Shown piece after piece: positions 57,974 through 64,000 of a stretch of 64,000 bases of DNA. The stretch comes from Escherichia phage pEC-M719-6WT.1: sequence record OQ845957.1. One strand, given 5' to 3'. Within the stretch, counting starts at the first letter, position 1, and each line of letters begins with the position of its first letter. Both the position numbers and the translations under genes were made by a program. The notes beneath the pieces are model-generated. The model did not search any database and was not told where the DNA came from. It was given only the letters and a program-made list of their open reading frames with translations.

Positions 57974-58034
57974 ATTTGTGTTTTGTGCAGAGTAGTGTAT
58001 AATTACCCCTATGTTTAATAAAATAGGAGAACCA

Positions 58035-58583
58035 ATGAAGAAATTCATTTTAGGTTTGTGCTTACTTTTTACAGCACAAGTAGCTGTGGCAACTGACTGC
58101 CCTGAGTTAACTATCGGCCAGAAAGTAAACATGCTTAAAGCTTACAACTATGGCGAAAACAAAATGGGAAAAGGTTGGGGCATTACACTTGCAGCTATAG
58201 CCTTACAAGAGTCAGAGTTAGGTCTTAACCTAGAAAATAGAAAGACACATGATTATGGCATCTTCCAGAATCACTTGAAGACTGTTGTAAAGCGTAACAA
58301 AGTTAACCCTAATGTAGCTAGGAAGAAGCTTATCAGAGACTTTCAATATGCTGCACAGGAGACTCACAAAGAACTTGAATTCTGGACTAAGGTACATGGT
58401 ACACCAAAAGGGAAGAAGTCTCTTAAAAAGGTGTTAGCCTCTTACAATGCAGGATATAGCTACAGCATCCCAAAAGCTAGACAGTACTCTAAAGATGTGT
58501 ATAATAATATGAAAGTGCTTGCTCAATGTGAGTTTGCAACAAACATTCAAAAGGTAAAACATGAGCGTATTAAGTCAATCTGA
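58035..58583 (+). CDS. Lytic transglycosylase (SLT domain) with N-terminal signal peptide
   Basis: Signal peptide MKKFILGLCLLFTAQVAVA; SLT motifs AIALQES and DYGIFQ; AGGAGA RBS; TATAAT-like -10 upstream. Confidence 0.55.
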   Translation: MKKFILGLCLLFTAQVAVATDCPELTIGQKVNMLKAYNYGENKMGKGWGITLAAIALQESELGLNLENRKTHDYGIFQNHLKTVVKRNKVNPNVARKKLIRDFQYAAQETHKELEFWTKVHGTPKGKKSLKKVLASYNAGYSYSIPKARQYSKDVYNNMKVLAQCEFATNIQKVKHERIKSI

Positions 58584-61527: not shown

Positions 61528-62310
61528 ATGGGTATTGTAAAAGTCATCAAAGGTGATATCTTCGCAGACTTTGAGAAAGGTAAGTTTGATATCATCGGTC
61601 ACGGTTGTAACTGTATGAATCTGATGGGTGCAGGTATTGCTGACAAGATTTCTAAGGGCTACCCAAAAGCCTATGAAACTGATGCTGAAGTCTACCGTGT
61701 AGCAGGAGGAAGAGAGCATAAACCTTGTCAGAAACTGCTTGGTAAACTCTCTGTAGCACGTCTTAAACAAGGCCGTATTGCTAACCTGTACACTCAGTTG
61801 AAGACTGGTAAAGATGCTCGCTATGATGCTCTTGAGAGCGCTCTGTTGAGCCTTAACCAGTACTGCAAAGTGAATAGACTGAAGAAAGTTGGGCTTCCAA
61901 TGATTGGTGCAGGGATTGGTGGGCTTGACCCGAAAGCTGTTGTGGTGATTATGAATCACATCCTGAAAGATGTTGATGTTTACCTTTACGTGTTTGAAGA
62001 GGCAATGTTTAATACTCTGTCAACATGGGGTAATCACAGTGAGCCACAATACTTTGCAGGTGTAGCCGTTGTCAACGAAGATGGAGTTACCCTCTTCAGG
62101 CATCGCCAGTACAAGGTACATCGGAGTAACCCTCCGGTTGAGCGAATGTCTCTAAGTAACGCTCAAGTTACCCCGCCGTTGAAAGGTAGTATGCAACGTG
62201 CAGTGACATTTGGAAGTGAACCTGATGTGTACATTCTTGCAGCAAATGAGAAAGATGCTGAAGCAATTATAGACATTTCTAATATCAAGTTCTTAGCTGC
62301 AAAGAACTAA
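61528..62310 (+). CDS. Macro-domain protein (ADP-ribose binding/processing) with ~110 aa C-terminal extension
   Basis: N-terminal GDIFA...DIIGHGCNCMNLMGAGIADKI and later GLPMIGAGIGGLDP resemble macro-domain glycine-rich ADP-ribose binding loops. Confidence 0.6.
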   Translation: MGIVKVIKGDIFADFEKGKFDIIGHGCNCMNLMGAGIADKISKGYPKAYETDAEVYRVAGGREHKPCQKLLGKLSVARLKQGRIANLYTQLKTGKDARYDALESALLSLNQYCKVNRLKKVGLPMIGAGIGGLDPKAVVVIMNHILKDVDVYLYVFEEAMFNTLSTWGNHSEPQYFAGVAVVNEDGVTLFRHRQYKVHRSNPPVERMSLSNAQVTPPLKGSMQRAVTFGSEPDVYILAANEKDAEAIIDISNIKFLAAKN

Positions 62311-62343
62311 GAAACTCTGTAGCATATTCACAATAGACTAAGC

Positions 62344-62387
62344 CTTTCTTATCTGGTGAATTTTCAGGTAAGGAGGGCTTTTTCATT
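62344..62387 (+). terminator. Rho-independent terminator
   Basis: 13-bp stem CCTTTCTTATCTG/CAGGTAAGGAGGG (with G-U pairs) followed by CTTTTTC. Confidence 0.5.
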
Positions 62388-62578
62388 TTAAAATTGTGCA
62401 GGTAAAAGTCTGGACAGAAATCTGTAGAGAAAATTTTGAACTCCAAAGGGAAAATTCATTTTCAATTTGTGCAGGTGGACTCCAAAGAGATTTTTCATTT
62501 TCAAAACGTGCAGTCCCGGCGAGTGTCGGGCAAGAAAAATCATTTTAGAATTGTGCAGGTAGGTGGGTGCAGGTGGGG
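62382..62578. repeat. Array of four ~22-bp repeats TTCATTTT-N-AATTGTGCAGGT plus extra GTGCAGGT copy
   Basis: Copies at 62382-62403, 62455-62476, 62494-62515, 62539-62560; irregular spacing 73/39/45 bp. Confidence 0.75.
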
Positions 62579-62738
62579 ATGCCACCATTTCTCACAAGGC
62601 TACCACATCTGAAAAGAAAAGTCAACAGAAAAATTTGTAGTGGATTGAAAAATAATTCTTGATTGTAGTTCTGTTTTGTGATAGTTGCATGTGCCCGTCT
62701 CATTACAGTTTTTGCAAAAAATATTTTTAAAAATTTGC

Positions 62739-62767
62739 TTGACCTGTAAAACAAAGGCGTTTAGTAT
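62739..62767 (+). promoter_or_regulatory. Sigma70-like promoter TTGACC-N17-TAGTAT, bracketed by inverted repeat TGCCCGTCT/AGACGGGCA
   Basis: Direct reading; AT-rich UP-like tract upstream; inverted repeat arms at 62692-62700 and 62775-62783. Confidence 0.55.
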
Positions 62768-62816
62768 TTGCATCAGACGGGCAAGCAAGCCCACTTCCTA
62801 AACTGGAGATTCCAAA

Positions 62817-63023
62817 ATGTTATATCAACGCCAATTGATGATTGTAGACAATAACAAGACTAAAAAGCGCCGTTTCTTTATGCTTATCTGTGACGTGTGG
62901 CAAAGAATATCAGAAAAAGATTTTGATAAGTATGTTGATACGTCTATCAAGTCAGATTGTTACTTGACAAATCACACAAGACAGTTTACAAGACATACAG
63001 CAATTTACTACTATGACGTTTAA
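62817..63023 (+). CDS. Small early-type hypothetical protein
   Basis: 68 aa; conserved leader CTAAACTGGAGATTCCAAAATG. Confidence 0.5.
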   Translation: MLYQRQLMIVDNNKTKKRRFFMLICDVWQRISEKDFDKYVDTSIKSDCYLTNHTRQFTRHTAIYYYDV

Positions 63024-63202
63024 AAGGTCTTGACAATGATTAAAGAAGACTATGTAATAAAATACAAAGGTAGTGACGGATACACAAAAATAGGTCGCGT
63101 CTTCTACCTTTACAAGTCAGTTACGGGTAATGACTGCATAGCTCTAACAAATGGCGACAAAATAACCATGAAAGATTTTATAAAAATTATTTCATAAAGT
63201 AC

Positions 63203-63231
63203 TTTACATGGGGTTTAGAGTTCGATAGTAT
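63203..63231 (+). promoter_or_regulatory. Sigma70-like promoter TTTACA-N17-TAGTAT overlapping hairpin TGGGGTTTA/TAAGCCCCA
   Basis: Direct reading; same -10 hexamer and spacing as 62739 promoter. Confidence 0.55.
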
Positions 63232-63281
63232 AAGCCCCAGATAAAGAGCTTTACCAACAATCCTAAACTGGAGAATCTAAA

Positions 63282-63665
63282 ATGAAAAAATACTACATGC
63301 CTAAATTCATCAAAAAAGAAAACTTTCGTGGTGCTCTGGAAAAATCTATGGGCGAACAATTCAAAGGCAAAATAATTGTTGTACACGCATATAATTTTAA
63401 GTATGATGTAAATGGTAACAAGATAAACCACTATAAAGCTACACTGTTAGATGGTACACTCTCAGGAGAAAAGGCTGTTATCCATGCACTTGCAGGACGT
63501 GGTAAGACGCTAATCCGTTGCGATAAACGCCGCTATCAAGGTAGTGCTTACGGTTATGAGGATGCAATCTATCATCTTGATAATATGGGTTACAACGTGG
63601 TAAAAGCTGGAGTATCCCAAATGATTGGTAGTGATGGTTACGTAACAATCTTTGAAATTAACTAA
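63282..63665 (+). CDS. Early-type hypothetical protein
   Basis: 127 aa; conserved leader CTAAACTGGAGAATCTAAAATG. Confidence 0.55.
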   Translation: MKKYYMPKFIKKENFRGALEKSMGEQFKGKIIVVHAYNFKYDVNGNKINHYKATLLDGTLSGEKAVIHALAGRGKTLIRCDKRRYQGSAYGYEDAIYHLDNMGYNVVKAGVSQMIGSDGYVTIFEIN

Positions 63666-63673
63666 TAAAGTGC

Positions 63674-63702
63674 TTTACATGGGGTTTATAAATTGCTAGT
63701 AT
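63674..63702 (+). promoter_or_regulatory. Sigma70-like promoter TTTACA-N17-TAGTAT overlapping hairpin TGGGGTTTA/TAAGCCCCA (second copy)
   Basis: Near-identical to 63203 module. Confidence 0.55.
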
Positions 63703-63754
63703 AAGCCCCAGATAAAGAACTTTATCCAACAACCTAAACTGGAGATTCAAAAAA

Positions 63755-64000
63755 TGGCTACTATCAAAAACATCATTGTTACTGCAAAATCTCGTGATGA
63801 TGCTCGCGCAACTGCTAAAAAATTAAATGGTAAAGTGGTTGACAATGGTAAAAATTCTAATGTAAGATGGGGTGTAAAGACAGACAAAGAATTAACCTTG
63901 AAACATAGCTCTAAAAACCTGTTTAAAGGTGTACAGACTATCGGTAAAACAAATGTATTTACAAAACAAGGTTACAAAATGCACTTGGCATTAACTGACA
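63755..64000 (+). CDS. Early-type hypothetical protein, 3'-truncated by window end
   Basis: ATG after conserved leader CTAAACTGGAGATTCAAAAAATG; open to window end. Confidence 0.5.

Follow-up and report, generated by a model that had tools for sequence, protein, structure and literature searches.

The repeated promoter modules at the end of the window (the whole 64,000-nt stretch of Escherichia phage pEC-M719-6WT.1, record OQ845957.1, that was analyzed) probably open an array of expression cassettes, each complete in itself, in a variable accessory region, of which they are the first three; judging from sequence comparison this array is likely to be a functional counterpart of the PeSL (promoter-early stem-loop) elements of T4-like phages. 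One cassette comprises about 85-90 bp and fills the gap between two small genes. Its elements follow each other in the order upstream stop codon (in AT-rich sequence), predicted sigma-70-type promoter, hairpin of a G-run and a C-run, leader with GGAG, and ATG. Two cassette types are found in the array, type A (window copies 2 and 3) and type B (window copy 1); all cassette features given below lie on the plus strand. Cassettes 2 and 3 are each bordered by a stop codon (63195-63197 and 63663-63665), with the corresponding ATGs at 63282 and 63754, and the same stop-to-ATG layout was observed across about 75 type-A copies. The two type-A copies of the window form a 99-nt direct repeat with 83% identity.

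The phage belongs to the Ounavirinae (Felix O1-like), and its cassette region is 80-86% identical to that of ESh22, KMM4 and SUSP2. We compared the array in 13 relatives, for which counting the leader gives 11-16 cassette copies per genome, arranged as a single block 3' of a macro-domain gene. In these relatives the array runs on beyond the point where the window ends, the three window copies being its start. Roughly 1,500 copies were found across 287 phage records. Its left border is an intrinsic terminator on the plus strand (a hairpin with a T-run at about 62340-62390), which closes the upstream unit ending with the macro-domain gene and whose sequence is that of the Felix O1 terminator t13 (Table 2, PMC3185647).

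Scanning IMG/VR for CTTTACA-N30-32-GATAAAGAG gave hairpin-bearing matches that were limited to Felix O1-like contigs of 85-90 kb; the remaining matches, about 80, have 0-2 pairs and look like chance hits. An Rfam search of positions 62250-64000 at E <= 1 returned no match. In the literature we found no description of a promoter-hairpin in Felix O1-like phages apart from a note on the leader in phage Mordin, although coverage of subscription journals was thin and an earlier description is possible.

Predicted promoters, leader and small genes

The initial annotation had proposed three repeated promoter modules, TTGACC-N17-TAGTAT at 62739-62767 and TTTACA-N17-TAGTAT at 63203-63231 and 63674-63702, and all of these positions were confirmed. 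In cassette 1 the -35 (TTGACC, 62739-62744) has AT-rich sequence upstream and is separated by a 17-bp spacer from the -10 (TAGTAT, 62762-62767). Cassette 2 carries TTTACA at 63203-63208 and TAGTAT at 63226-63231, and in cassette 3 the -35 TTTACA (63674-63679) is followed by an extended -10, TGcTAGTAT (63694-63702). The pattern TTKACM-N17-TAGTAT has 4 matches in the 64 kb compared to 0.00 expected, and 3 of the 4 fall inside this 1 kb; the modules, promoter-like sites together with the leader, are real repeats of which none is expected by chance.

For the relatives we analyzed 55 distinct type-A and 43 type-B copies. Type A follows the pattern CTTTACA-N17-TAnnnT, in which CTTTACA is invariant or nearly so; in the -10, the first T, the A and the last T are each kept in 53 of the 55 copies and the middle three positions hold 0.05-0.27 bits. 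Type B follows TTGACN/TTGCAA-N17-TAnnnT, with TTGACA, TTGCAA, TTGACT or TTGACG as variants of the -35 and TAAAGT, TAAATT, TAGTAT or TAATAT as variants of the -10. The fixed 17-bp spacing that had been pointed out is kept in both sets, even in type-A cassettes that are shorter by 1 nt. The identical -10 was a more limited observation: all three window copies do share TAGTAT, but the relatives conserve only positions 1, 2 and 6, and by this comparison the identity within the window is a local coincidence. A near-invariant -35, the constant spacing and TAnnnT support the proposal that each small gene is driven by a promoter with a shared leader, and the cassette sites are very probably sigma-70-type promoters of the host, each driving a small gene. 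Transcription is predicted to start near A62775 (cassette 1, placed by the usual distance of 7-8 nt), A63239 (cassette 2) and A63710 (cassette 3).

The shared leader CCTAAACTGGAGA was found without mismatch at 62797, 63262 and 63733, as annotated, and no other mismatch-free copy exists in the window. Leader and start codon span 62797-62819 in cassette 1 (GGAG 62805-62808, ATG 62817) and 63262-63284 in cassette 2 (GGAG 63270-63273, ATG 63282); in cassette 3 the leader occupies 63733-63745 (GGAG 63741-63744, ATG 63754), and leader plus gene extend over 63733-64000. The ORFs start 8-9 nt past GGAG, and CCTAAACTGGAGA stands 8-9 nt ahead of ATG in the three window copies as well as in the 11-16 copies per relative; nearly every cassette copy carries it. 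The announcement of phage Mordin reports the same 26-bp repeat upstream of 8 genes and calls it 'SAS-like' (PMC4611695).

Cleavage of the GGAG leader by a RegB-type nuclease was also considered and dropped. The phiEa104 protein gp007, annotated as 'T4 endoribonuclease RegB', is 44% identical to a homologue encoded in the window (58011-58583), and neither of the two matches RegB. For gp007 we observed a match to the SLT transglycosylase domain (23.2 bits, cut-off 21.3); the window protein scores 19.7 bits for the same domain, which is under the cut-off.

Each leader is followed by a small ORF, in agreement with the initial annotation: a 68-aa gene in cassette 1 (62817-63023, phrog_5293), a 127-aa gene in cassette 2 (63282-63665, phrog_4495) and, in cassette 3, a gene that begins at 63754 and is cut off by the end of the window (85 aa long in relatives, phrog_5089). 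Cassette 1 in addition includes a 53-aa gene without its own promoter (63036-63197, phrog_14219), which begins 12 nt after the end of the 68-aa gene. This 53-aa gene is missing in phage mio and Felix O1, the 127-aa gene in Felix O1 and Moogle. Pfam gave no match for 14 products of the array, and none for the ORFs behind the three window leaders, and all PHROGs matches were to families of unknown function. The host-takeover role suggested in the initial annotation is speculative for these products. In the texts on gene fitness (the Bas63 PhageMaP preprint and the SUSP1 CRISPRi-ART paper) the array genes were not identifiable. End-point RT-PCR in Felix O1 showed a peak at 5 min for the array ORFs 16, 20, 21 and 22 and at 25 min for ORFs 17, 19 and 23 (PMC3185647); because of the latter three, the term 'early' does not hold uniformly over the array. 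The authors of the Felix O1 genome detected no promoters in the region and stated that the passage of transcription past the terminators, and its timing, were unknown (PMC3185647).

Hairpins of the two cassette types

At promoters 2 and 3 an inverted repeat, TGGGGTTTA/TAAGCCCCA, had been annotated. It is present in both copies, though merely as the core of a longer palindrome, which in copy 3 has 26-nt arms (63665-63690 and 63700-63725) with 85% complementarity. The predicted type-A structure has three tiers of 7, 5 and 11 bp, 23 bp in all, which are split by 1x1 and 2x2 internal loops. In cassette 2 the hairpin encloses the promoter (63195-63253; fold -24.5 kcal/mol, z = -3.5): the outer stem contains the stop codon of the upstream gene, the middle stem has the -35 in its 5' arm, the -10 extends over the loop and the inner stem's 3' arm, and the predicted start site follows immediately 3' of this inner stem. 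The hairpin of cassette 3, with the same stems of 7, 5 and 11 bp, spans 63665-63725 (fold -26.1 kcal/mol, z = -4.5) and likewise has the -35 and the extended -10 inside it.

Among the type-A copies the 23 pairs are paired to 89.6%, compared to at most 54% when the partner columns were slid, and pairing lies above the controls in all three tiers. The covariation score of 0.135 (0.058 in shuffles) was reached by 0 of 500 shuffles; the copies are related by descent, probably with gene conversion, so that the cell counts far overstate the number of independent compensatory events, an effect for which the shuffles do not correct. At pair 30-54, 49 copies have G-C, and the 6 with U-A all come from Erwinia phages (GGTG...CACC); pair 36-48 occurs as UA (19), AU (17), UG (12) and GC (2), and pair 32-52 as UG (32) and CG (21). 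The middle tier is invariant and gives no covariation evidence, because the same bases form the -35. On this comparative evidence the type-A hairpin is a selected structure, and the fact that pairing is kept by compensatory and wobble changes over four genera argues for selection on the structure itself.

The departures from symmetry show a clear strand bias. In the 20 core pairs we counted 981 Watson-Crick pairs, 98 G·T and 1 A·C, and the type-A variants from IMG/VR likewise depart from symmetry almost always by G·T. Pairing therefore appears to be selected on the sense strand only, that is, in RNA. This fits one option of the initial annotation, an RNA hairpin, and for the same reason disfavours the other, a shared operator. 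As a DNA operator the palindrome would be bound over the promoter by a dimeric regulator of phage or host that switches all cassettes together. It is indeed centred on the promoter spacer, spans the -35 and the start site, contains TAAAG-NN-CTTTA twice and GGGG/CCCC that is constant within a genome, and is common to many promoters; co-evolution of an operator with its protein would likewise produce symmetric half-site changes, for example the GGTG/CACC of the Erwinia phages. However, recognition of double-stranded DNA predicts no strand bias, and asymmetries that are almost all sense-strand G·T would be meaningless for it. The upper stem moreover varies freely within one genome and yet stays paired (all four combinations at pair 36-48), the type-B cassettes of the same array, with the same leader, have no palindrome over the promoter, and no candidate regulator was identified. 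We consider an operator very unlikely.

For promoter 1 the situation is different. The bracketing inverted repeat that had been drawn around it, TGCCCGTCT (62692-62700) with AGACGGGCA (62775-62783), is present in the window with 9/9 pairs, but it is only partly conserved and differs in kind from the repeats at the other two promoters: KMM4, SflM_004 and mio have 8 of the pairs, ESh22 has 6, and SUSP1, Moogle and Sf13 have about 4. The left arm is situated 5' of the promoter, and the repeat competes with a conserved local hairpin for GGGC. Being kept only in part, the bracket was rejected as a conserved structure; the conserved element is the local hairpin GGGCAAGCAAGCCC (GGGC-AAGCAA-GCCC, 62779-62792), with a predicted 5' UTR fold of -11.1 kcal/mol. 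It starts about 4 nt downstream of the predicted start site and would thus sit at the 5' end of the mRNA. In the relatives type B has 24 distinct G-run/C-run stems at a fixed offset, and in 35 of the 43 copies the distance from the -10 is 10 nt. These stems are short (4-8 bp) and are exchanged as pairs, GGGC/GCCC alternating with GGGA/TCCC and with GGGGAGGG/CCTTCCCC.

The cassettes do not look like intrinsic terminators. Downstream of the inner stem comes AGAUAAAG and downstream of the whole hairpin CCAACAAU, neither of which is a U-tract, and a terminator scan picked up the true terminator at 62340-62380 but none of the cassettes. The possibility held out in the initial annotation, that the hairpins act only as terminators, is thus disfavoured. 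Judging from its predicted position inside its own 5' UTR, a type-B hairpin is in any case incompatible with efficient termination. As a separate observation, the XTG1 record annotates the cassette hairpins as minus-strand terminators; on that strand the structure is weakened by A·C mismatches.

Gene gain and loss and the proposed role of the cassettes

Gene gains and losses among the phages start and stop at the cassettes, which by these alignments are the break points of gene exchange between related phages. Felix O1 lacks the window regions 63036-63195 and 63289-63658 as well as everything from 63754 onward, phage mio lacks 63037-63195, and the colinearity of Moogle with the window ends at the leader of cassette 2. 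Furthermore, one gene family is found behind a type-A cassette in one phage and behind a type-B cassette in another.

Such borders, together with the swapping of cassette types before the same gene, would also be expected if the cassettes were linker DNA, kept for recombination or selfish spread, with hairpins that have no regulatory role and palindromes that are by-products or recombination hot spots; for PeSLs, crossover points have been mapped within or beside the stem-loop (PMC2839356). Against this stand the compensatory and wobble pairing across four genera and a hairpin position that is fixed relative to the promoter to the nucleotide, and recombination needs homology alone and no hairpin. 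We see little chance that linker DNA accounts for the array.

In the explanation that we prefer, an array of independent expression units, host RNA polymerase would initiate at every cassette soon after infection, so that each small gene is expressed separately. The type-A hairpin would form only in read-through RNA coming from the upstream cassette and would insulate neighbouring genes from one another; this RNA could be attenuated or processed there, leaving a 3' hairpin that protects the upstream message. The type-B hairpin, at the extreme 5' end of its own mRNA, may shield this from 5'-end-dependent decay. The shared leader would provide the same translation start region for all array genes, and repeats of about 100 bp may let homologous recombination insert, delete and swap genes while leaving their neighbours undisturbed.

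A sharper version of this RNA-level role, compatible with it, takes the type-A hairpin as an RNase III site at which read-through RNA is cut into single-gene messages with a protective hairpin stub. Sites of RNase III in phages such as T7 have the look of an interrupted helix. The type-A hairpin resembles them, with 23 bp in tiers of 7, 5 and 11 and 1x1 and 2x2 loops, corresponding to about two helical turns; it sits exactly between cistrons, all of its tiers pair above controls, and since it has no U-tract it is not an intrinsic terminator. On the other hand, cleavage goes beyond what the sequence can show, the never-varying middle tier contributes no covariation, and the type-B hairpins are too small, so that the two types would need separate explanations. 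We therefore treat RNase III processing as a possibility that is more doubtful than probable.

Still more speculative, and in our view unlikely, is an extended reading in which the type-A element of about 60 nt is doubly coded, as a host promoter in DNA and as a processing or insulation hairpin in read-through RNA. In this RNA the -35 would pair with the first transcribed bases and the -10 with the spacer. The invariant leader would form a second, small hairpin with the Shine-Dalgarno sequence in its 3' arm; the possible forms are CC-UAAACU-GG, CCU-UAAACU-AGG in one variant, and CCUU-AUA-AAGG and CCUC-AAA-GAGG in Erwinia phages. The array would then be a phage-wide 'early regulon', which a phage factor could shut off as a block after transcription, in the way RegB and RegA act on early messages of T4.

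The cassettes provide a testable map of about a dozen predicted host-type promoters per Felix O1-like genome. Phages of this group are widely used for typing and biocontrol of Salmonella and E. coli. For their engineering, the cassettes mark natural sites of insertion and offer expression units that are ready to use.

Comparison with known systems

In the early region of coliphage T7, strong host promoters precede RNase III sites that separate the early genes. Like it, the array has predicted host-polymerase promoters for its small accessory genes, and in both cases the read-through RNA contains long, imperfect hairpins between its cistrons. However, T7 has three promoters clustered at the start of the operon and separate hairpins, whereas here each gene has a promoter that is the same DNA as the hairpin.

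A second comparison, to the SAS (start-associated sequences) of cluster K mycobacteriophages, was drawn by the authors of the Mordin announcement (PMC4611695) and concerns a conserved RBS-containing sequence before a subset of small genes in one arm of the genome. We likewise found CCTAAACTGGAGA with its RBS just upstream of the start codons. SAS is a purely descriptive label; sequences, hosts and phage groups are unrelated to the Felix O1-like array, and the sigma-70-type promoter that always accompanies the leader here is absent from the SAS description. Pope and co-workers reportedly described an extended SAS in 2011, in which an inverted repeat precedes some of the copies.

The closest likeness is to the PeSLs, described in the T4-like phages RB49/phi1, T4/PST and KVP40/nt-1 (Arbiol et al. 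2010, PMC2839356; Comeau et al. 2014, PMC4122927). A PeSL consists of a stop codon in an AT-rich region, a sigma-70 promoter, a stem-loop with G-T pairs, an SD sequence and ATG; the stem-loop is mostly located between -35 and -10 or over the -10, and the elements cluster ahead of orphan genes and are associated with indels (PMC2839356, PMC4122927). The Felix O1-like cassettes have an identical order of parts, from stop codon through predicted promoter to ATG, and a G_N-loop-C_N stem-loop with G-T pairs, which in type A sits between -35 and -10 or over the -10 and in type B downstream of the -10. In both systems, moreover, about 100 bp are conserved, many copies cluster ahead of orphan genes in variable DNA, and the cassettes bound indels between close relatives. 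The T4/PST consensus TTTACW-N17-TAYWAT (PMC2839356, PMC4122927) is the same as that of type A.

Several differences were observed as well. The lineage is another one (Ounavirinae, about 88 kb), with no similarity in sequence by blastn; type A is a 23-bp three-tier hairpin whose -35 is itself paired with the first transcribed bases; the leader CCTAAACTGGAGA is far more conserved, and the copies form one contiguous array instead of lying in several regions as in T4-like phages. Terminator activity and formation of mini-circles have been demonstrated for PeSLs (PMC2839356, PMC4122927), but termination of this type is not predicted for our cassettes because their hairpins lack a U-tract; together with the location of type B in the 5' UTR, this speaks against simple termination. 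By the comparison of layouts, the cassettes match the PeSL class by design and not by descent, and the promoter-plus-stem-loop design of Felix O1-like phages is apparently of independent origin. The finding is solid but only moderately novel, since the cassette design was already known from the PeSLs. A promoter-plus-stem-loop cassette so far described only in T4-like phages thus recurs in an unrelated myovirus lineage, which lends further weight to the view that large lytic phages use cassettes of this kind as a general means of plugging accessory genes into and out of their genomes.

Predicted promoters, leaders and hairpins of the three cassettes

By reading the sequence between 61800 and 64000 we found all three promoter-like sites described in the initial annotation, namely TTGACC-N17-TAGTAT at 62739-62767 (copy 1) and TTTACA-N17-TAGTAT at 63203-63231 and 63674-63702 (copies 2 and 3). 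A degenerate promoter pattern matched the 64-kb window four times, whereas shuffled sequence predicts 0.00 matches, and three of the four hits fall within this 1 kb. The leader said to be shared, CCTAAACTGGAGA, is indeed exact in all three units, and a search of the window located it mismatch-free only at 62797, 63262 and 63733. An ATG ORF begins 8-9 nt past each leader; the three products had no Pfam match and all belong to PHROGs families of unknown function, in line with the small ORFs originally proposed. Over a direct repeat of 99 nt, copies 2 and 3 share 83% of their bases. The cassette of promoter, hairpin and leader is a real, non-random and conserved feature.

For comparison we drew on the corresponding stretch in 13 phages, which represent four genera, and distinguished type A, in which the promoter lies inside a long hairpin (copies 2 and 3), from type B, in which the hairpin follows the -10 element (copy 1). 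Type A has the form stop codon - AAAGTRCTTTACA - N17 - TAnnnT - AAGCCCCAGATAAAGAGCTTTAC - ... - CCTAAACTGGAGA - N8 - ATG. CTTTACA is invariant or nearly so across 55 distinct copies of identical geometry, and in the hexamer 17 bp downstream the first T, the A and the last T each occur in 53 of the 55, the three positions between them carrying 0.05-0.27 bits. Judged from the aligned sequences, this conservation has the hallmark of a sigma-70 -10 element; the hairpin does not account for it, because T1 and A2 sit in the loop. Fifteen type-A copies are 1 nt shorter, keeping the 17-bp spacer and lacking the base after the -10. In type B, TTGACA, TTGCAA, TTGACT, TTGACG or TTGACC is followed after N17 by TAAAGT, TAAATT, TAGTAT or TAATAT, and then by a G-run/C-run hairpin (GGGC-AAGCAA-GCCC at 62779-62792 in the window). 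Of the 43 type-B copies, 35 have this hairpin beginning 10 nt past the -10, and the set comprises 24 different stem-loop sequences. The identity of the TAGTAT hexamers holds within the window but is local, as the relatives read TAAGAT, TAAAGT, TATCTT or TACCAT.

The inverted repeats reported for each promoter are present, but in copies 2 and 3 the palindrome extends well beyond what was first seen, with 26-nt arms that are 85% complementary (63665-63690/63700-63725 in copy 3). The bracket around promoter 1, TGCCCGTCT/AGACGGGCA, pairs at 9/9 positions in the window; however, it is not the conserved element of this cassette type, with about four pairs in SUSP1, Moogle and Sf13 and no matching upstream arm in other type-B cassettes.

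Structure and possible roles of the hairpins

Folded as RNA, both type-A units of the window give a hairpin with three tiers, at -24.5 kcal/mol (z = -3.5) for copy 2 and -26.1 kcal/mol (z = -4.5) for copy 3. We tested a 23-pair model (outer stem 7 bp; middle stem 5 bp, including the -35; inner stem 11 bp, including the 3' half of the -10) on a gapless type-A alignment. Paired cells made up 89.6% compared to at most 54% with slid partner columns, and the covariation score was 0.135 compared to 0.058 in shuffles (reached by 0 of 500), the copies sharing descent and probably gene conversion, so that independent events are far fewer than cells. Pair 30-54 is G-C in 49 copies and U-A in six, all from Erwinia phages (GGTG...CACC); pair 36-48, whose column 48 is -10 position 5, is UA in 19, AU in 17, UG in 12 and GC in 2. 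Pair 32-52 is UG in 32 and CG in 21, and pair 17-67 is GC in 49, GU in 2 and UA in 2. The middle stem is invariant across the alignment because it is also the -35. The initial annotation had left the choice between an operator and an RNA hairpin. The 20 core pairs comprise 981 Watson-Crick, 98 G·T and 1 A·C cells, and in further stem variants from IMG/VR contigs most departures are likewise of the G·T kind. Such one-strand wobble of the G·U type is predicted by RNA pairing of the transcribed strand, but neither a double-stranded operator nor a cruciform should give rise to it. The hairpin is a selected structure, and it most likely acts in sense-strand RNA.

With the usual 7-8 nt from the -10, type-A transcripts are predicted to start just 3' of the inner stem (~A63239 and ~A63710), so that the full hairpin would occur only in read-through RNA from the previous cassette, where it is predicted to fall between two cistrons; the upstream stop codon lies in or at the outer stem. 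The type-B hairpin, in contrast, would be the 5'-terminal stem-loop of its own mRNA, beginning 2-4 nt past the predicted start. Neither type has a U-tract after the stem (the following sequences are AGAUAAAG, CCAACAAU and AACAAU), and a terminator scan flagged the real terminator at 62340 and none of the cassettes. For type B, an efficient terminator is ruled out by the position of the hairpin inside its own 5' UTR. On these grounds we infer that type-A hairpins may shield adjacent units from one another in RNA, through attenuation or processing, the upstream message keeping a 3'-protective hairpin, and that type-B hairpins may stabilise the 5' end of their own message. Cleavage of the 23-bp type-A hairpin by RNase III would be an appealing, more specific form of the RNA-level role.

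The leader (62797-62808, 63262-63273, 63733-63744, and in relatives) could also fold into a very small hairpin of its own, whose 3' arm contains the Shine-Dalgarno sequence. It occurs as (U)CC-UAAACU-GG(A), as CCU-UAAACU-AGG, which has a paired insertion and is present in at least 35 copies, and as CCUU-AUA-AAGG and CCUC-AAA-GAGG in Erwinia phages, which suggests conservation as a structure, albeit from very few independent changes. In the record of phage XTG1 cassette hairpins are annotated as minus-strand rho-independent terminators (L010 9350-9370, 10215-10235, 11769-11789 and 12930-12950); these sites have no minus-strand genes, and the minus-strand stem contains A·C mismatches.

Extent of the array, gene exchange and neighbouring regions

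Felix O1-like phages of the Ounavirinae (ESh22, KMM4, SUSP2 and others, 252 records) match the region at 80-86% identity. In SUSP2 the homologue of the window end runs on for ~5 kb as small genes in series, with spacers of ~64-94 bp (mostly 86-94 bp), and closes at a canonical terminator. The leader is present 11-16 times in every phage of Escherichia, Shigella, Salmonella or Citrobacter, and four times in the incomplete stretch of Felix O1. Since the array of the relatives continues past the homologous point, the window holds only the first three units, cut at base 64000. The cassette was not found beyond Felix O1-like contigs in an IMG/VR scan, domain searches recognised no domains in the array proteins, and Rfam gave no match.

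A gene-order map of 13 arrays revealed a conserved backbone in which some phages lack units that others have, and the cassette in front of gene families 8, 13, 16 and 6 can be type A in one phage but type B in another. At the nucleotide level Felix O1 is colinear with the window up to 63035 and resumes only in cassette sequence, lacking 63036-63195, 63289-63658 and everything from 63754 on; in phage mio the missing piece is precisely 63037-63195, and Moogle loses colinearity at the cassette 2 leader. These alignments place the break points of gene exchange at the cassettes.

Upstream, a hairpin plus T-run at 62340-62380 is the Felix O1 terminator t13 (PMC3185647). The 430-bp non-coding gap from there to the first cassette contains four direct repeats of ~38-45 nt (62364-62576), whose core CATTTTNRAWWYGTGCAG (62384, 62457, 62496 and 62541) has four matches, all in this gap, versus 0.3 expected; further copies of GTGCAGGTGG come next, at 62567-62576. 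SUSP2 has kept the block (L001 12080-12260), which could be a set of protein-binding sites, either iterons or sites for a regulator. Beyond the SUSP2 array, ~1.6 kb of non-coding sequence (L001 18800-20400), dense in the short repeats CTTGTTAG, CTGTTAAG and CCCTATAAAG, extends to converging minus-strand genes. Several deposited genomes (KMM4, BPS17W1, mio) are opened in this post-array region, which might hold genome ends or a replication origin.

The 260-aa product of the gene directly upstream of the array (61528-62310) has a macro domain (Pfam Macro, E = 5.8e-8) and is labelled 'phosphatase' in relatives. The 'predicted T4 endoribonuclease RegB' of phage phiEa104 (gp007, L008 984-1496) proved to be an SLT-like protein without a RegB match, and the public annotation is probably wrong. 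Its SLT transglycosylase domain scores 23.2 bits (cut-off 21.3) versus 19.7 bits, under the cut-off, in its 44% identical window homologue (58011-58583); by eye, both have a hydrophobic N-terminal stretch resembling a signal peptide.

Comparison with known systems

The Felix O1 genome paper lists five promoters elsewhere and none in the array region, and states that transcription past the terminators and its timing are not understood; its RT-PCR dates the peak of array ORFs 16, 20, 21 and 22 to 5 min and that of ORFs 17, 19 and 23 to 25 min (PMC3185647). The leader part of the cassette has already been noticed in print: the Mordin genome announcement describes a 26-bp repeat, CCAACAATCCTAAACTGGAGAATCTA, before eight genes, which its authors likened to mycobacteriophage start-associated sequences (PMC4611695). 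Our literature search, of incomplete coverage, found no earlier description of the promoter-hairpin unit in Felix O1-like phages.

By its anatomy, which matches point by point, the closest known system is the promoter-early stem-loop (PeSL) cassette of T4-like phages (PMC2839356; PMC4122927). Both have a stop codon in an AT-rich stretch, a sigma-70 promoter (a predicted one in the present cassettes), a G_N-loop-C_N stem-loop with G-T pairs, and a later Shine-Dalgarno sequence and ATG; both are conserved over ~100 bp, cluster before orphan genes and form indel borders. The PeSL stem-loop mostly occupies the space from -35 to -10 or overlaps the -10, and sometimes lies downstream of it, and the T4/PST promoter consensus TTTACW-N17-TAYWAT agrees with type A. 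However, the Felix O1-like cassettes belong to a different phage lineage, show no detectable sequence similarity, have a longer three-tier hairpin and a much more conserved leader, lack a U-tract and stand in one contiguous array. Terminator activity and mini-circles are further properties of PeSLs, shown by experiment. For the present feature, the description that fits best is that of PeSL-like promoter/stem-loop/leader cassettes of an Ounavirinae phage.
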